A DNA stretch of 26,617 nt from Pirellulales bacterium (GTDB lineage: Bacteria; Planctomycetota; Planctomycetia; Pirellulales; JADZDJ01). A model generated the notes under the pieces. It saw nothing but the letters and a program-made list of their open reading frames with translations. It had not been told where the DNA came from and searched no databases. This document shows positions 4,305 to 21,785 of this stretch, piece after piece (the stretch's first letter is position 1; the number at the start of each line of letters is the position of its first letter). The DNA is taken from contig JADZDJ010000297.1 in assembly GCA_020851115.1 (NCBI GenBank), positions 1 through 26,617 on the forward strand. Direction: 5' to 3'. Position numbers and translations under genes: made by a program.

Positions 4305-4439
4305 ATTGGCTGAGTAGAAGTTAGTCCAATTTGAAAGCCTACCACGGTGGCCGAAGTTGAGCAAAGAACGCTTGAACAAGGTTTCGTTGCCTTTCTTGCT
4401 GTCGCATTGCATTCCCTGACCGGTGCCACGACGGGCACG

Positions 4440-7009: not shown

Positions 7010-8377
7010 CTAATTTTCATCACCGCCAAGCAATTTTTCTTCGACTTTGTCAGCCTGCCAAGCAATGGCGGTGATGACTCGGGTGACTGCGAGGGGATCT
7101 GCCATTCTTGCCAATTCATTCGCGCGAACTGCAAGCACGTCACCGGTTGGTCCTGATTCGATCGCAAACGCTCCATGTACCATCTGCGCGTTGTATTTGA
7201 GCAGCGAAATCGCATTCTTGTCGCTCGCGGGGCCGCAAACGGAACTGAAGACGAGCATTTGATTTCCATCAGGGTCTTTTACATCAAATCGTACCGTCAC
7301 GCGTTGTTTACGCAGCGGCCCGATGGGAACAATCACTTGCCATTGCTCTCCCGTGTCAGTCAGTTGCCAACCGGCCGACTGGGCAACGCTGCGGACGAGT
7401 TGCTTCGGATCAACGACCAGCGGTTTCAAATCGGCGAAATCTGGCCCAGCGGTTGCGGCCACAGCCGATGCGGCTGCTCCCGACGCCGCTCCCGGAGCAG
7501 CCTGGTAGGGTGCGGAGGGATTTGCGCCTTGCATCGCATCGCGCATCATCCCGGGGAACATCATGCCGAAACCCGCACCCATGCCCATTCCCATTGCCCC
7601 GGCACCCACGCCACCACCGCCGTGCTTGGCCATCTCGGCCATGCTGTTGGCGGCCTGATACATGGTGAACGACTGTAAGCCGCCCAAAGCTCCGATGCGG
7701 CTACGAGCGTTGATTGCTTCTTGCACTTCGTCCGGTGGCGTGACTGCATTAATAATGAAATCGACTAACTCCAGGCCGTATTTCGCAAAATCGTCGGCCA
7801 CTTTCGCCTTCGTGCCGGCCTCGATTTCGTTGGCCTTCGATTGCAATTCGAACACGCCGAGGCCGACGGAGGCCAGCAAGTCTCGCAGCCGCGAGACGAT
7901 GATGTCCTTTAAGAACGACGTGACTTCGTCGGTTGTGTATTTTCCCTGCGTACCGACGAGTGTATTTAGCAACAATGCTGAATCAACGACGCGGATCGAA
8001 AACTTGCCGTTGGCGCGCAATTGCACCATGCCGCCGAAGTCGGCGTCGCGCAATGGAATCGGCTGGCGCGTGCCCCACTTCTGGTCGAGGAACGTCTGCT
8101 TTCCAATGAAGTAAACCTGCGATTGGAACGGCGACTTTTCCCAGGGAATTGTCAAGATCCGGCTGATGATTGGCAGATTTTGCGTCGTCAACGTATAACG
8201 TCCTGGGCCAAAGCAGTCCATCGCTTTGCCATCGCGGAAAAATACCGCGTCTTGGTTCTGCTGCACGATAAGCTGCGCACCGTACTTGATGTCGGCCGAG
8301 CCTTCGGACGGAATTCGCTGGACGAGTGAACGGTTCGACTCGTCAAAAAACTGAATGACTTCGAGACGAAGGGACAT
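7010..8377 (-). CDS. SPFH/band-7 (COG4260 'virion-core-like' clade) domain protein fused via a Gly/Met/Ala-rich low-complexity linker to a C-terminal YbjN-like domain
   Basis: 455 aa. N-terminal ~250 aa are SPFH-like. Linker [26 protein letters not shown]...[19 protein letters not shown]. The C-terminal ~130 aa ([19 protein letters not shown]...[19 protein letters not shown]...) resemble YbjN/putative-sensory-transduction-regulator fold proteins. No TM helix. Confidence 0.8.
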
Positions 8378-8385
8378 AGTAGGGT

Positions 8386-8398
8386 CCAGGGTTCAGGG
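8386..8398 (-). repeat. 13-nt motif CCAGGGTTCAGGG (mRNA sense CCCUGAACCCUGG) ending 8 nt upstream of the SPFH-gene ATG; identical copy at 19251-19263
   Basis: Exact 13/13 identity with 19251..19263. Both copies are in minus-strand intercistronic regions, each exactly 8 nt from a start codon. Both are part of an approximate tandem of GGGTYCAG 8-mers and are followed by a shared AAAAT at the same offset. Confidence 0.5.
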
Positions 8399-8489
8399 AA
8401 TGCAAAATGAAGAATGAAGAATCAGGAGCAACGAAAATTCTCAGCTTTTTTAACTTGCATCGTGCAAATTATATTTTCGTTTTGAATCA

Positions 8490-8999
8490 CTACTCCAATC
8501 CTTTAAGCATATCGCTGCGATGGTCGATCGCTTGCTCAACGGCCGCAAGTTGTTCATTCCATTTTGCGACCTGCGGTGCGATTTCAGCCGTCGCAGTTGT
8601 CATCTGATCGAGGTTGTCGCCCAGTGCATCGACAGCGTCCATCATTTTCACATCATATTCATAGACGCGTTCCAACCGTCCTTCGTCCACTTGCACGAGG
8701 TCAAAAAATCCACTGTAGCCCGCCATTGCCCCGCGGAGTCGGCTAATCGACTTGTCAAGCCGTCCCTTGAATCGATCGACTTGCCCGACCGCATCCAGTT
8801 TGCCGGCATCGACGAGCGCGCGACTGTAGGCATCGAGTGCCCGCTTCGACCGCTGAAGTCGGTCGGCCAACCAACTGCGCTGCAGGGCGTCGCTGTCGCG
8901 GCGATATTCCTTTTCCAAGTACCCCTTAAAACCTGGAATTCGGCGAAGGATGCTTTCAATCCACCCCCGATTTTTTGCATGCTCGCGTGGTTCCGGCAT
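8490..8999 (-). CDS. Hypothetical protein (169 aa, predicted all-alpha, coiled-coil-like)
   Basis: ATG 8999 with GAGGT SD at -7. Charged helical sequence. No family recognised. Immediately upstream of the SPFH-YbjN gene on the same strand (112-nt spacer). Confidence 0.6.
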   Translation of the reverse strand: MPEPREHAKNRGWIESILRRIPGFKGYLEKEYRRDSDALQRSWLADRLQRSKRALDAYSRALVDAGKLDAVGQVDRFKGRLDKSISRLRGAMAGYSGFFDLVQVDEGRLERVYEYDVKMMDAVDALGDNLDQMTTATAEIAPQVAKWNEQLAAVEQAIDHRSDMLKGLE

Positions 9000-9178: not shown

Positions 9179-11587
9179 CTATTTTTCACTAGGAATTTCG
9201 CGACCGTGTGGATCGACTACCACCGATACCTCTGCTGCAAGTTGCTGTTGCACCTGGTGGCCGATGAAATGCTCCATGCGTTCAGCGGGTGCGTGAAGGT
9301 GATCGAGCGGCAATTCGGCCTGCTCCTCCAAATAGGCCTCCCACAGGCGGTGCGATCGAACGAGTGACCTGCCTACCTCGCGCCCCGCATCGGTCAGTTG
9401 CCAGCGTCCATCGGTTGCGAGTTGAATCTCTCCGCGGCGGCGCAAATACGGTACGGCAAGCAGGTGGGCCAAGCCGGTAACTGCGCTGCGATTTTTGATC
9501 GCTGTATTGGCCAACGATTCGCCGCGTGCGAGCAACTCTTCGGTTCGATAGAGCGCTGCAACCATATCTTCGCTTGTAATCCGCAGCGATAGCAAGAAAT
9601 TTCGCCACCACTTGCTCACCAGCCCATGCTGGGGTGCGATGAACACGGCCAGCAAGAATTGCAGCCCCACCGCGACGGCCATCATGGCAGCGACGTTCGT
9701 ATTGAACACTTGCGCCCCGATGTCCCCAAGAATAGCCGATACAATAGCTACCGCAACCGCGCAGCCGATCATCGGGCCCAAACGATCGGCCAGTAACTGC
9801 GCGGTCGCCGCCGGAACAATGAGCATTGCGACGACTAAAATCGAGCCAATTGCTTCAAATGCCGTCACCGTCACTCCTGCGACGACGGCCATCAGCAAGT
9901 AATGGATCACCGCAGCGTGTATCCCCATTGCGGTTGATAAACCAGCATCAAACGAGGCGATTTTCAGTTCCTTCCAAAGTATGCCGATGAACAAAATCAC
10001 TGATGCGCACATCCCCAACATCGTTGGCAGTGTGCGCGGCACTTCGTACGATCCGATGTTGATGACATCCACCGCGACGGTATCGAGCATTCCGTAAAGC
10101 ACGCACTGGGCGTCCAAATCGGTCCCCGCTGCATAGCGCGAAATCAGGATCACGCCGATCGAAAATAACGTCGTGTAGACAATGCCCATGCTCGAATCTT
10201 CCGGTACGCGGCCGAGATCCTTGAGTGCGTGTGTTAGAAATGCGGTCATGAAGCCAAACACCATCGCGCCGGCCAGAATTGGCCAGCCCGTGATCTGTCC
10301 TGTCAACATGAAGCCCAATACAATACCGGGCAGCACTGCATGGCTAATTGCATCCCCCAGTAAACTCATGCGCCGCAATACCAGATAGCAGCCGAGAATC
10401 GCGCATGGGATGTTGACGAGGCAGCCGATCAAGATGGTCCAACCGGCTAGCGGCCGATCGGTGGGTGGCACCAACCGCCACCAAGCAGCAAACAAAAGCA
10501 CGGCGCCAATAGCAACTCCGCCAAACTGAATGGCAAGATACAGCCATGATTTCTGCAAAGTTGTTGGCATTGGCCGTCGCCATTGGAAATCGTCGGGATG
10601 ATCTGAAATTGCATTGCCGAATCCCAGTTTCAACTTCATCGGGCCGCCAATGTCTTCCAGTGGCAATGCAAGCGACAATGTGGTCTCTGCTCCTTCAGTT
10701 GCTCGATAACCACCAGCCGCCAATAGACGGCGAAATTGCAACTGTCGAATGCCACGGGCCAACGCGCCGCGCCGCGGGGCGAAAAGCATCGAGATCAGAA
10801 AAATCATTGCGCCGGCGACAACGATAATTGGCCCCGTCGGGATGCCGGCCATTTGCACGCTGATTGCCGTACCAAACAATCCCATCGTACTTCCAAAAAT
10901 CGCCGACAAGACCAACATAATGTCCAGCCGATCGGTCCAGAACCTTGCGGCGGCTGCCGGTAAGATGAGCAGTGCCGCCATCAAGATTGCACCAACCGCC
11001 GGCAATCCAATCACCACGGCGACCGCCATTAGCGACATCAATAGCAGATCGAGCCGCCACACCGGCCAGCCTTGGGCCTTCGCAAAGCCCGCGTCGAAGG
11101 CCATCAGTTTGAATTCTTTGTAGAGCAGCAGAATCAATATCGCGCAGACGGCTGCCATTGCGGCAATTAAATAGACGTCGCTCGCAATCATGCCGGCTGT
11201 CTTGCCGAAAATATAGGAATCGAGGCCAGCTTTGCTGCCGCCGATCGACGACTTTTGGATATAGCCGCTCAATGCAATGCCGCCACCAAAAAAGACGCCA
11301 AGTACGATCCCGATCGCGGCGTCTTCTTTGATGCGAGTCCAACGCCGCAAGGCGGAAATCACCGCCACCCCCAGCACACCCGTGCAGAGCGCTCCGACCA
11401 GCATTGCCGGCAAACTACGCTCACCGAGTACGAGAAAAGCCAAGCACAAACCCGGCAAGGTGGCGTGCGAAAGCGCGTCGCCGGTCAGAGCGCGGCGGCG
11501 CAACACAGCAAAACTACCGACTACTCCAGCTCCGGCGCCGAGCAGCGCAGAACCAGCCAGCACGACCATCGAGTTATATGCGATCAT
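9179..11587 (-). CDS. Metal ABC importer permease: tandem fusion of two MntB/ZnuB/TroC-TroD-type permease domains plus a C-terminal DtxR/MntR-family metalloregulator domain (Chlamydia YtgCR / Treponema TroCD-TroR-like)
   Basis: 802 aa. Permease 1 is about aa 1-290 (...[13 protein letters not shown]...). A cytoplasmic linker follows. Permease 2 is about aa 355-650 (...[13 protein letters not shown]...). The C-terminal ~145 aa is DtxR-like: [17 protein letters not shown]...[11 protein letters not shown]...[17 protein letters not shown]...[11 protein letters not shown] 11585-11587 overlaps the ATPase stop TGA (ATGA coupling). Confidence 0.85.
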
Positions 11588-18084: not shown

Positions 18085-19242
18085 TTAGACTCGTTCGAAA
18101 ACCGTGGCGATACCCTGTCCGACGCCGATGCACATGGTTGCCAGCCCAGTTTGTGCGCCACGGTCGAGCATGTTATGCAGCAGCGTCGTCGTGATACGGG
18201 CGCCACTGGCGCCAAGCGGATGACCGATGGCAATCGCCCCGCCGCGGACGTTGACTTTCGCTTCATCGAACTTCGACATGCGGATGCAAGCCAGCGATTG
18301 CGACGCGAAGGCTTCGTTCAGTTCGATCAAATCAATGTCGCTCAGCTTCATGCCAGCGCGCTGCAGGGCTTTCTTCGTCGCCGGCACCGGGCCAGTGCCC
18401 ATAACGGCCGGTTCGACGCCGACAACGGCCGTCGCAACGATTCGCACGAGCGGCTTCAGGCCGAGCGACTTTGCTTTGTCTTCGGACATGACCAATAGGG
18501 CCGCGGCACCGTCGTTCAGCGGTGAACTATTGCCGGCCGTCACCGTTCCCATCCCCGGCATAAACGCTGGCTTGATCGCCGCAAGGGCTTCCATGCTAGT
18601 GTCCGGACGCACGCACTGATCGACTTCGACCAACACGCGATGGCCGGCCTCATCGCGGCCGTAGATGGGCACGATCTCTGGTTTGAATTCGCCTTTGGTA
18701 TGTGCCGCCGCGGCACGCTGATGGCTGCGCAGCGCGAACCGATCTTGCTCCTCGCGGGAAATGCCCTGCGTCTGCGCAAGGAATTCCGCCGTGACACCCA
18801 TGAGCAGCGCGCCTTTGCTGGTGCGCTGAAAGAGCCGAGGATTCAGATTGATCCCTGCGTCCATCGGAATGTGCTGCATGTGCTCCAGTCCGCCGACGAT
18901 CTGCACATCTTCGCCGCCGGCGATGATGGAATGCGCTGCTTGATTGAGCGCTTGCAAGCTGGAGCCGCACAGCCGGTTAATCGTTGCCCCGGCCGCATGC
19001 ATCGGCATCCCAGCCATGAGGGCCACCGTGCGAGCGACGTTCATTCCCTGCTCGCCTTGCTGCTGCGTATTGCCCAGCACGACGTCTTCGACTTCGTTCG
19101 GATCGATGCCGCTCCGCTCCACGACGGCTTTGACGACAGCCGTCGCCAAATCGTCCGAGCGAACATCGCGAAATACACCCTTTTCTTGATGTGACCGGCC
19201 AATTGGAGTGCGTGCGGCAGCGACGATGACGGGGCGTATCAT
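18085..19242 (-). CDS. fadA: Acetyl-CoA C-acyltransferase (3-ketoacyl-CoA thiolase)
   Basis: Thiolase motifs NRLCGSSLQA (active-site Cys), the C-terminal GGAIAIGHPLGASGARI, and CIGVGQG. Confidence 0.9.
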   Translation of the reverse strand: MIRPVIVAAARTPIGRSHQEKGVFRDVRSDDLATAVVKAVVERSGIDPNEVEDVVLGNTQQQGEQGMNVARTVALMAGMPMHAAGATINRLCGSSLQALNQAAHSIIAGGEDVQIVGGLEHMQHIPMDAGINLNPRLFQRTSKGALLMGVTAEFLAQTQGISREEQDRFALRSHQRAAAAHTKGEFKPEIVPIYGRDEAGHRVLVEVDQCVRPDTSMEALAAIKPAFMPGMGTVTAGNSSPLNDGAAALLVMSEDKAKSLGLKPLVRIVATAVVGVEPAVMGTGPVPATKKALQRAGMKLSDIDLIELNEAFASQSLACIRMSKFDEAKVNVRGGAIAIGHPLGASGARITTTLLHNMLDRGAQTGLATMCIGVGQGIATVFERV

Positions 19243-19250
19243 GGCAGGAG

Positions 19251-19263
19251 CCAGGGTTCAGGG
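19251..19263 (-). repeat. Second copy of the CCAGGGTTCAGGG motif, 8 nt upstream of the fadA ATG (within tandem GGGTTCAG x2)
   Basis: Identical 13-mer to 8386..8398. Lies in the 40-nt fadB-fadA intercistronic spacer (19243-19282). Followed by GTTCAGAAAAT. Confidence 0.5.
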
Positions 19264-19282
19264 TTCAGAAAATCGGTCAGAT

Positions 19283-21424
19283 TCAGCCATAGAATCTTGA
19301 TCCGGCGTGTGCCATTTCTTCAAGCATCGGTGTGGGCTTCCAGCGCTGGCCGAGCGATTCAAATGGCTTGAGCATTTCGATAATCTTGCTTGCCCCCAGC
19401 GTGTCGGCCCAAAACAGCAGGCCCCCTTTGAACGGTGGAAAGCCGAGGCCATAAATCAGTCCGAGATCCACGTCGCGAATGTCTCGTACAATCTTATCCT
19501 GAAGCAGCCGGGTAGCTTCGAGAACCATCGGAAGAAACAGCCGTGCCGTGAGCTGCGCTTCGCTAAATTGCTGCTGACTGCGGACCATTGACTCCACAAT
19601 CGATTGGAGCGCTGGGTCCGGTTCGCCGCGGTCTTTACCGGGGTGATACTTGAAAAAACCAGCGCCAGATTTCTGCCCGAGACGACCAGCTTTGATGAGC
19701 GCCGGCACGACGGGTGAAACAACGACTCGCTCCGGAAAAGCGTCGTACATCACACGTCCCGCATAAAACGCTGTATCGAGCCCGACAACGTCAAACAGCG
19801 TAATCGGTCCCATCGGCATTCCAAAATTTTTTGCGGCTCGATCGATTGCAGCAATATCTGCGCCGTCAAGCAGCAATTCGATCGATTCATTCATATAGGG
19901 CAGCAACAAGCGATTGACCAGAAATCCTGGCCCATCGTTGACAACGATCGGCGATTTGCCGATCGCTTTGGCGTAGGCGACCGCCGTAGCGATGGTTTCG
20001 TCGCTGGTTTGCTTCCCGCGGATCACTTCCACCAGTGGCATTTTGCGGACCGGATTGAAGAAGTGAATCCCACAAAATTGCTGCGGTCGCTTTAACGCCT
20101 TCGCAAGTTGCGTGATGGGGATTGTCGAAGTGTTGGATGCCAAGACGGCGTGTTCGCGCAATTGGGGTTCAAGCCGCGCAAAAACCTGCTGTTTCACGGC
20201 GGCATTTTCGACGACCGCTTCAACCACTAAATCACAGGTGGCGACTTCGGCATCGGTCGTCGTGGCATTCAGCAGCGCGGCGAATTTCACGGCACGCGCT
20301 GGATCGGCGCCTTTGGTTTGTTTATTGTACGAAACTTCTTCGAGCACTTTTTGCACGCCTGCCGAAAGCGCCTTTGCGGCGGCGTCGGTCATGGTCACCG
20401 GAACATCGCGACGCAAATTTGCTGCCGCAATTCCTTGCCCCATGATACCCGAACCGATGACGGCGACCGATTGGATGGGTCGCGCTACGATATTTGGCCG
20501 ATCAATGCCGAGGTCTTTCTTGTTGCGATCCGATAAAAAGAAAACATTGATCAGCGACCGGTTTACCGGTGAGCCAAACAAGGCCGCCATACCCTTGGCT
20601 TCTTCCTCGCAAGCAGCGTCGATGTCGAGGGCTGCAGCGCCGAGCATTACTTCAAGCGCCGCGAATGGAGCGGGGTAATGACCCTTGGTTTGCTGTTGAA
20701 TGAGCGCCGAAGCGGTCGCACCGAGGAAGCCCAACTCCGTCTCATTGATTTTGATCGGCGCGCTCCAGCGCTGGCGGTCGTCAAGAAACTGCTTCGATTG
20801 CTGTTCGTCGCGAATCATCCGAATCGCGGCGTCTTGCAATCGCTCGGCCGGCGCTACATCGTCGGCAATTCCTAGCTTGAACGCAGAGGCCGCATCGATA
20901 TTTTCCGCGCCGGTGACCAGTTCCACGGCGTTGCTCAATCCAATCATCCGCGAAGTTCGGGCCGTGCCGCCCCAGCCGGGAAACAGCCCCAGTTTGACTT
21001 CGGGAAATCCAAACTGTGACTTTGGATTTAAGCTCAGAACGCGTCGGTCGCACCAGATGGCCAACTCTGCTCCGCCGCCGACACAAATTCCATCGATCGT
21101 CGCAACTGTCACAAACGGGTACGTCGATAACCGCTGAAACAGCTTTCGACCGCGATGGCAAAACTCGACAATTTGCTGCTTTGGCATCTCAAACGATGCG
21201 GCAAACTCGCGAATATCGGCACCTGCGATGAACGATCCTGGCTTGCCAGAGCGAATGACAAGCCCCGCGAGGCCAGTGCGCTTTTCGAGCGAGTCCAATT
21301 GTACCGATAATTCTTCGAGCACATGCGATGTGAGCACGTTCGCGCCCTTTTTGGGGTCATCAAACGTCAACATGGCTATGTCGGCTTCAGGAAACGAGAG
21401 TTTGACAACCGATTCGTTGGGCAT
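19283..21424 (-). CDS. fadB: Fatty-acid oxidation complex alpha subunit (enoyl-CoA hydratase / 3-hydroxyacyl-CoA dehydrogenase, FadB/FadJ-like)
   Basis: N-terminal crotonase fold and a central NAD-binding GSGIMGQGIA. ~714 aa from ATG 21424 (MPNESVVKLSF...). The ORF extends to ATG 21547 but the extra 41 aa are low-complexity, so the start is uncertain. Confidence 0.85.
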   Translation of the reverse strand: MPNESVVKLSFPEADIAMLTFDDPKKGANVLTSHVLEELSVQLDSLEKRTGLAGLVIRSGKPGSFIAGADIREFAASFEMPKQQIVEFCHRGRKLFQRLSTYPFVTVATIDGICVGGGAELAIWCDRRVLSLNPKSQFGFPEVKLGLFPGWGGTARTSRMIGLSNAVELVTGAENIDAASAFKLGIADDVAPAERLQDAAIRMIRDEQQSKQFLDDRQRWSAPIKINETELGFLGATASALIQQQTKGHYPAPFAALEVMLGAAALDIDAACEEEAKGMAALFGSPVNRSLINVFFLSDRNKKDLGIDRPNIVARPIQSVAVIGSGIMGQGIAAANLRRDVPVTMTDAAAKALSAGVQKVLEEVSYNKQTKGADPARAVKFAALLNATTTDAEVATCDLVVEAVVENAAVKQQVFARLEPQLREHAVLASNTSTIPITQLAKALKRPQQFCGIHFFNPVRKMPLVEVIRGKQTSDETIATAVAYAKAIGKSPIVVNDGPGFLVNRLLLPYMNESIELLLDGADIAAIDRAAKNFGMPMGPITLFDVVGLDTAFYAGRVMYDAFPERVVVSPVVPALIKAGRLGQKSGAGFFKYHPGKDRGEPDPALQSIVESMVRSQQQFSEAQLTARLFLPMVLEATRLLQDKIVRDIRDVDLGLIYGLGFPPFKGGLLFWADTLGASKIIEMLKPFESLGQRWKPTPMLEEMAHAGSRFYG

Positions 21425-21785
21425 TGGGCTAATATTCCTATTGGGAGTTTCCCTCCACTCAAGGATAGAGCTGCCGGGCTGCCTCGTAAACCCAGATTGA
21501 ATGCCGCCGGACGAGGTGGTAAACTTCGTCCATAAGCCTTGACCCATCTAGCATGGCGATCCTGCGGTCGCCGTTCGAGCCGTTTAGGCTGGTCATGTCA
21601 AGGAGGGAAATACGAAGAAGTCAAGCATCCAACGGCAGCGCTTTTAGTCAAGGATGGCAGGTTTAGGGGGATTCCGTCCGAGGTTGATGATCTGCTAGAA
21701 CGAGCAGACGATTGCCAGGTGCGACATCGCCTGGCAGTCGAAATAGCTTGCATTGGGCTGACTACTGTATTGATTAGGATTTTTT

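Follow-up and report, generated by a model that had tools for sequence, protein, structure and literature searches.

Short tandem heptanucleotide arrays precede the start codons of an SPFH gene and of fadA in a Pirellulales bacterium and belong to a repeat family found in many phyla

RESULTS

Two intercistronic spacers end in short heptanucleotide arrays

The DNA analysed here, referred to as the window, is a stretch of 26,617 nt from a Pirellulales bacterium and makes up one entire MAG contig. Two gene junctions on its minus strand are the subject of this study. At the first, an SPFH/Band_7 gene (7010..8377, minus strand; Pfam PF13421 at 1.2e-60), whose product is identical to an NCBI MAG protein of Pirellulales bacterium, follows a co-directional 169-aa ORF taken from the ORF list (8490..8999, minus strand). 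This ORF matched no Pfam family, and the same gene precedes the SPFH gene in the related loci L081 and L082. At the second junction, the thiolase gene fadA (18085..19242, minus strand; Pfam Thiolase_N and Thiolase_C, FadA by its NCBI name) follows a fadB-like ORF of 754 aa, also from the ORF list (19283..21547, minus strand), whose orthologues in L083-L085 carry ECH and 3HCDH domains and which ends with TGA 40 nt ahead of the fadA ATG. Both sites are intercistronic, with spacers of 112 nt (SPFH) and 40 nt (fadA). In L081, the closest relative, the SPFH spacer measures 31 nt; the ∼80 nt by which the window exceeds it (8427-8489 region, minus strand) are AT-rich (aaaacgaaaatataatttgcacgatgcaagttaaaaaagc) and hold no consensus promoter or terminator match. 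Elsewhere in the window, an 802-aa ORF (9179-11587, minus strand) combines an ABC-3 permease profile in two stretches with a C-terminal Fe_dep_repr_C domain, an architecture also present in L081 and in a 12-kb JGI contig; this candidate metal transporter-regulator fusion may deserve attention of its own.

A preliminary description of this DNA had drawn attention to a 13-mer shared by the two junctions, and an exact match search confirmed it. CCCTGAACCCTGG (mRNA sense) stands 8 nt before the ATG of both the SPFH gene (8375-8377) and fadA (19240-19242), two unrelated genes, and the window holds exactly two copies of CCAGGGTTCAGGG, at 8386-8398 and 19251-19263. On the minus strand both copies read as the 13-mer, then 8 nt, then ATG (cattttgcattCCCTGAACCCTGGaccctactATG at site 1 and gattttctgaaCCCTGAACCCTGGctcctgccATG at site 2). 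The AAAAT reported at a common offset is also there, as ATTTT in mRNA sense, 5 nt upstream of the 13-mer at site 1 and at site 2. The surrounding sequence had been read as near-tandem octamers of the form GGGTYCAG. This had to be corrected, as TRF gave a period of 7 with the unit GGGTYCA, i.e. CCCTGAA in mRNA sense.

TRF found period-7 arrays at these two places only in the window, with 3.6 copies in array 1 (8398-8422) and 2.4 copies in array 2 (19252-19268); both are short, their scores of 34-36 lying near the threshold of 30. A separate lag-7 detector agreed with TRF and gave site 1 a span of 8398-8428. In mRNA sense, the full series at site 1 reads CCTGATT CTTCATT CTTCATT TTGCATT CCCTGAA CCCTGGA CCCTACT ATG. 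Its last three units form the proximal part of the array (8378..8398, minus strand), which ends at the base before the SPFH ATG, and the four T-rich units in front of them (8399..8426, minus strand) are a degenerate continuation with the same period. Array 2 consists of the four units TTCTGAA CCCTGAA CCCTGGC TCCTGCC (19243..19270, minus strand) and ends at the base before the fadA ATG. Both arrays end at -1, in phase with the ATG, and each of them makes up the last 21-28 nt of its spacer. The 13-mer starts at -21 at both sites, three units before the ATG, and the 8-nt spacing is simply the consequence of this phase (21 minus 13). An in-frame TGA is found at -18 at both sites, so neither the SPFH nor the fadA ORF can start further upstream. 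The two 13-mers mark where two short tandem heptanucleotide arrays are best preserved and are not a discrete shared motif; that both sites are heptamer simple-sequence repeats is, in our judgement, highly probable. Such an array precedes two of the ∼16 gene starts in the window and is therefore not a general initiation signal.

The identity of the two 13-mers and their spacing had been called improbable. The identity by itself is not, since exact 13-mer pairs number 15 direct and 21 inverted in the window, where second-order Markov simulations predict ∼15 direct and ∼17 inverted pairs. The shared offset is improbable indeed: when the 60-nt upstream regions of 16 likely genes of the window were shuffled, an identical run of at least 13 nt at a shared offset was obtained in one of 50,000 shuffles (P ∼2e-5). 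A further sequence, TTGCATTCCCTGA at 4407-4419 on the plus strand, repeats, on the reverse strand, the first unit of array 1 together with its 5' flank (8398-8410). It was considered as a third copy and rejected, because there is no tandem array at this place and inverted 13-mers occur at chance level (about 17-20 expected).

A C-rich period-7 array persists at the orthologous junctions

Relatives of the fadA junction (L083-L085) came from a separate FadA protein search; tblastn found neither FadA nor FadB in 82 SPFH loci. In L084 (92% FadA identity), the fadB-fadA junction reads TCCTGAC CCCTGAA CCCTGAA CCCTAGC CCCTGCC ATG. With the flanks aligned, this array has five units, against four in the window, and lacks the exact 13-mer; this difference of a single unit between relatives is a direct hint that slippage is the generator. 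An orthologous array of another copy number is present in L083 as well (91% FadA identity; CCCTGAA CCCCAAA CCCTGAA CCCTTCTC ATG). L085 (89% FadA identity) has no CCCTGAA and carries inverted TTCGAAG-type heptamer arrays instead.

A comparable picture was obtained at the SPFH junction. In L003 (75% protein identity), the leader reads CCCCGAA CCCTGAA CCCTGTC ATG, an orthologous array in the same phase as in the window. In L082 (81%), an inverted pair of GGGGCGA arrays is followed by CCCCTAA CCCCTCA GTCTCCC ATG. In the closest relative, L081 (89%), the 31-nt spacer ends in CCACTCA CCACTAC A ATG, without the 13-mer. L081 and L084 come from one sample, in which the SPFH leader is thus built of CCACTCA units and the fadA leader of CCCTGAA; the SPFH unit has changed while fadA keeps CCCTGAA, and the pairing of the two genes is therefore not conserved. 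A C-rich period-7 array persists at both junctions but changes fast in sequence, copy number and length. The CCCYGAA unit also stands upstream of the SPFH orthologues of L003, L039 and L065; in L065 it is repeated in 5.3 perfect copies.

Period-7 arrays are in excess outside coding sequence

Many of the 79 SPFH orthologues have heptamer arrays of other units just upstream, such as CCCGACA, TCCCGAC, CTGACCA, TGCTGAA, GTAGATT and GAGTTGA. In 711 kb of related DNA, we counted 56 period-7 arrays (at least three copies, at least 85% lag matches), vs ∼5 in Markov simulations, an excess of about tenfold. The 13% of this sequence outside long ORFs contains 36 of the 56, and several of the remaining arrays lie within spurious ORFs. 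No excess was seen for period 5 in the same DNA, and period 8 gave 8 arrays against 0.2 simulated. The autocorrelation at lags 7 and 14 is raised in non-coding DNA only. When all heptamer units at the SPFH loci were compared by orientation, 10 of 51 arrays vs 2 of 47 in the opposite sense were found within 30 nt of a start (p=0.03), a weak trend in the C-rich-sense direction that comes from related, not independent, loci.

Two other arrangements were observed in these loci. Purine-rich heptamer arrays of up to 10 copies (AAGGATG, GATGAAC, GAGGGAC, GGAAGGC) follow the stop codon of the SPFH orthologue by a few nucleotides in several distant relatives (L034 3754-3794, L078 2498-2535, L008 2201-2225, L017 5970-5994, L051 3614-3645 and L075 3374-3448). 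Heptamer arrays also often form inverted pairs, 50-250 nt apart and always with the G-rich arm first and the C-rich arm second (L082 2624-2694; L085 9845-9990 and 11180-11300; L026 18194-18283; L035 8590-8694 and 11042-11121; L066 2065-2293; L068 14180-14309; and L086, L098, L100, L145, L155 and L156). Such pairs would form long intergenic hairpins. An inverted-pair arrangement has been reported for Xanthomonas repeats too (PMC4692102).

The (CCCYGAA)n family adjoins start codons in many phyla, mainly in one orientation

When one genome per species was scanned for CCCYGAACCCYGAACCCYG, at least 120 loci were obtained, where our own estimate, based on uniform composition, would predict ∼35 chance matches over the whole collection. 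Among the loci listed, ∼35 are from Planctomycetota and ∼19 from other PVC phyla (∼45% together, from a hand tally of record titles), ∼17 from Acidobacteriota, 9 from Desulfobacterota, 8 from Pseudomonadota and 7 from Actinomycetota. Several loci can fall in one MAG, as in CAZIEA, DASXUX, CAZXCE and JBBDYH.

From the listed loci, 137 arrays were taken for a strand-symmetric test on the ATG near the array 3' end, a positive being an ATG that opens an ORF of at least 100 aa no more than 20 nt from that end. Positives numbered 29 of 120 with the C-rich strand as sense and 5 of 121 when the G-rich strand was taken as sense (Fisher p=5e-6; listed loci). The gene calls behind this comparison are crude ORF calls, with Pfam validation for 20 ORFs only. 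Nine of the ten ORFs that start no more than 5 nt from an array end have Pfam domains from the N-terminus and are real genes; they include those of glutamyl-tRNA reductase (hemA), chorismate synthase (aroC), GlgB, a class II tRNA synthetase and an aminotransferase. The genes downstream of the arrays are functionally unrelated housekeeping genes. Since the family shows a start-codon bias and the ORFs it adjoins are genuine genes, some connection with translation starts is still plausible. C-rich-sense arrays lie at a median of 12 nt from the downstream start and 73 nt from the upstream stop, and 15 of 20 are nearer the start. L087, L099, L142 and L195 do have a Shine-Dalgarno (SD) sequence, and there the array immediately precedes it.

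With the G-rich strand as sense, (TTCAGGG)n arrays were observed directly after stop codons in L096, L100, L113, L139, L155, L170, L183, L189, L193 and other scan loci. In the median they lie ∼12 nt behind the stop and ∼130 nt ahead of the following start (14 of 16 nearer the stop), and nine of ten ORFs ending at such arrays are real genes by Pfam. With C-rich-sense arrays at starts and G-rich-sense arrays at stops, the coding sequence is in both classes on the side of the array's 3' end, as read on the C-rich strand. Heptamer arrays are also found at a distance from starts, behind stop codons and in inverted pairs, and their unit sequences differ widely between loci. Such varied units and placements make a single function unlikely.

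Very long arrays of 13-23 units are found in Pirellulales and other MAGs (L105 3851-3957, ∼15 units; L163 2713-2871, reverse strand, ∼22 units; L134 587-676, reverse strand). Long arrays mix CCCTGAA with AAACTGA or ATCCTGA, which indicates that the unit drifts within one array around a constant CTGA core. In L128, L147, L177 and L182, the array sits at position 1 or at the contig end, which suggests that heptamer arrays break short-read assemblies.

The exact 13-mer is absent from all 734 kb of related loci, the orthologous sites included, so the proposal of a specific element is not supported, and the fixed spacing ascribed to it dissolves into copy numbers and ATG distances that vary among relatives. 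The suggestion of a tiny dispersed repeat proved right: the 13-mer is part of a tandem (CCCYGAA)n family present at the orthologous junctions and at no fewer than 120 loci in many phyla. The wider search for a start-codon bias, which had been recommended as a check, gave a positive answer for this family. The exact 13-mer was found seven times in the scan loci listed, at varying distances from any ATG. Five of these seven copies form the 3' border of a (CCCTGAA)n run that is uninterrupted; L092 and L157 show a broken array context or none at all.

The leaders are predicted to be unstructured and lack a Shine-Dalgarno sequence

In RNA folding, both arrays were predicted to be unpaired. Compared with shuffled sequences, the folds of site 1 and the longer fold of site 2 had z-scores of -0.52 to +0.41. 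The bare 43-nt spacer of site 2 gave a z-score of -2.5 owing to two small flanking hairpins, with the array still unpaired. Rfam returned no match at gathering thresholds in the whole window, and a promoter and terminator scan of 8300-8600, which covers site 1, gave no sites. Neither site shows the features of a structured RNA element or of a palindromic dispersed repeat of the REP/MITE type.

The arrays of the window occupy the -5 to -20 region before the start codon, where an SD sequence would be sought, and have no complementarity to CCUCC. Neither ccctggaccctactATG nor ccctggctcctgccATG contains GGAGG or AGGA, and no canonical ribosome-binding site stands between repeat and start at either site. 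Compared with the anti-SD core CCUCC (the host 16S rRNA lies outside the window), the C-rich leaders have no GGAGG-like run at -5 to -12. A single patch of purines is present, UGG(A) at -11 to -8, produced by a shared A-to-G change. It was considered as a weak SD and set aside; it is not conserved, being missing in L084 and L003.

DISCUSSION

Relation to known heptanucleotide repeats

Among the long simple-sequence repeats of many bacteria, heptamers are the most abundant, and polymerase slippage has been put forward as their source (Mrazek 2007, as cited in PMC4692102 and PMC4679880). The arrays of the window resemble these repeats, as far as they are described there, and the STRR heptamers of Calothrix PCC 7601 (PMC4692102) in their period of 7, intergenic position and variable copy number ascribed to slippage, and probably in their dispersal; unlike them, they are degenerate and, at 2.4-3.6 copies, very short.

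Of the known systems, the most similar one is the TAACTGA repeat, which occurs in marine Beggiatoaceae, some Cyanobacteria and Bacteroidetes (MacGregor 2015, PMC4679880). TAACTGA repeats are tandem 7-nt units in 2-6 copies, mostly intergenic, and in Beggiatoaceae they lie mostly in forward orientation a few nucleotides from start codons without a ribosome-binding site; binding by S1, Csp or CsrA-type proteins has been suggested (PMC4679880). Forward orientation a few nucleotides upstream of start codons is shared by both window arrays and the (CCCYGAA)n family, and leaders without a canonical ribosome-binding site are shared by both window sites. In both systems, the downstream genes are unrelated and include housekeeping genes, and the unit contains stop codons, with a common CTGA core (TAACTGA vs ACCCTGA). 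They differ in that the window unit, CCCTGAA, is C-rich and in that the hosts of (CCCYGAA)n are Planctomycetota, other PVC phyla, Acidobacteriota, Desulfobacterota and others.

The repeats GGGAATC of Xanthomonas and GGGGA(C/T)T of Nostoc (GGGGAYT; Rehm et al. 2015, PMC4692102) share with the window arrays a G3N4 unit on one strand. They are intergenic, often lie between the same genes in related species, vary extensively in length and sequence between relatives and sometimes form inverted pairs. The window arrays differ from them in their unit, in having too few G-tracts for a quadruplex and in having the C-rich strand as the mRNA strand before start codons.

The searchable literature contains no description of CCCTGAA or CCCYGAA repeats, or of heptanucleotide repeats in Planctomycetes. 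Matches in the literature to the repeat sequence itself were rat Kiss1 primers only, and, in a survey of prokaryotic satellites, Rhodopirellula baltica appears in a table only. The window arrays are a new example of the known, poorly understood heptamer simple-sequence repeats of bacteria, with another unit and in other hosts.

A putative role as leaders for SD-independent initiation

We propose that the arrays are created and resized in steps of 7 nt, most probably through slippage of the strands at replication. Beside genes they persist mainly in one orientation, and in the leader the C-rich strand is the mRNA strand. Directly before a start codon, a C-rich-sense array may take the place of an SD sequence. 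As a leader that is unstructured and poor in G, it would leave the start codon open to SD-independent initiation, possibly through ribosomal protein S1; it carries the in-frame UGA at -18, and its length could be tuned by slippage. Planctomycetes have few SD genes, and non-SD genes are weakly structured around the start (PMC5397173). The proposal of an unstructured, SD-less leader fits both properties.

Taken as a whole, the reading of these arrays as slippage-generated heptamer repeats kept as G-poor, unstructured, SD-less putative leaders seems to us evenly poised between right and wrong. A real contribution of the arrays to initiation, with a positive effect on translation, is at the very best an even call and may be a somewhat less probable one.

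The main rival of the leader reading is that the arrays are a neutral by-product, slippage-prone filler tolerated in spacers without a positive role. The orientation bias could then stem purely from selection against the opposite orientation, that is, from the removal of harmful arrangements such as G-rich structured or quadruplex-prone leaders before starts. The fast turnover, with replacement of the unit between close relatives, the many unit types and the occurrence of arrays far from genes and at contig ends all agree with neutral filler, as do the mere two window genes that have an array, and slippage is the standard explanation of the heptamer excess (PMC4692102, PMC4679880). Against it, some C-rich period-7 array is kept at both junctions down to 75% protein identity as its sequence changes, and arrays are placed near the start rather than spread through the spacer (median 12 vs 73 nt; 15 of 20 nearer the start). 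We consider neutrality the less likely account, and still a serious one.

It is also conceivable that CCCUGAA repeats bind a trans-acting RNA-binding protein of the S1, Csp or CsrA type, or a small RNA, with the SPFH gene and fadA as members of a regulon. The same unit in the same phase at two unrelated genes, the adjacency of CCCYGAA to start codons in many phyla and the hypothesis advanced for TAACTGA repeats (PMC4679880) would be in line with this. However, the closest relatives, from the same sample, have CCACTCA in the SPFH leader and CCCTGAA in the fadA leader, the exact 13-mer does not recur in the 734 kb of related loci, arrays precede housekeeping genes of unrelated function, and no candidate binding protein was identified. 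As the pairing of SPFH and fadA is not conserved, we regard a sequence-specific regulon as improbable.

Still less probable, and by our estimate very much so, is an effect at the DNA level in which (GGGTTCA)n would form a G-quadruplex, or its complement a C-rich i-motif, and modulate transcription or replication, an effect that has been studied for the GGGAATC repeats of Xanthomonas. The antisense-strand unit is of the same G3N4 type as the repeats of PMC4692102, and long arrays elsewhere (L105, L163) have enough G-tracts. The plus strand of the window, in contrast, carries three GGG tracts at site 1 and two at site 2, where an intramolecular quadruplex needs four, which makes a quadruplex role unlikely here, and site 2 lies within a 40-nt operon spacer. 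Pure coincidence between two unrelated spacers would accord with the chance frequency of 13-mer repeats in the window, but it is effectively refuted by the shared offset, by the independent period-7 arrays at both sites and by the recurrence of the unit at orthologous sites and in many genomes.

Returning to the arrays as putative leaders, a wider proposal may be put forward, namely that (CCCYGAA)n, and perhaps C-rich heptamer arrays generally, would be a cross-phylum cis element for SD-independent initiation. Arrays set right against the start codon, with their C-rich strand as mRNA, would bring in or place the 30S subunit by means of S1 or another protein that binds single-stranded RNA, slippage by 7 nt would act as a heritable, reversible expression dial for ordinary housekeeping genes, and the G-rich-sense arrays after stop codons would be a 3'-end counterpart. 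We hold this proposal to be unlikely.

Implications

For annotation, the arrays can be of practical use, as their in-frame TGA at -18 marks true start codons. They probably also break assemblies, several of the scanned arrays lying at contig ends, and they should not be taken for a regulatory motif common to the genes behind them. The purpose of heptanucleotide repeats, the most over-represented long simple-sequence repeats in bacteria, is a standing puzzle, and a second one is the way in which ribosomes locate starts in SD-poor phyla, Planctomycetota among them. A family that adjoins verified housekeeping starts across phyla, mainly in one orientation, links both puzzles, and the CCCYGAA arrays offer a concrete sequence for reporter work. 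The lasting interest of the finding lies in this cross-phylum, orientation-specific tie to start codons.
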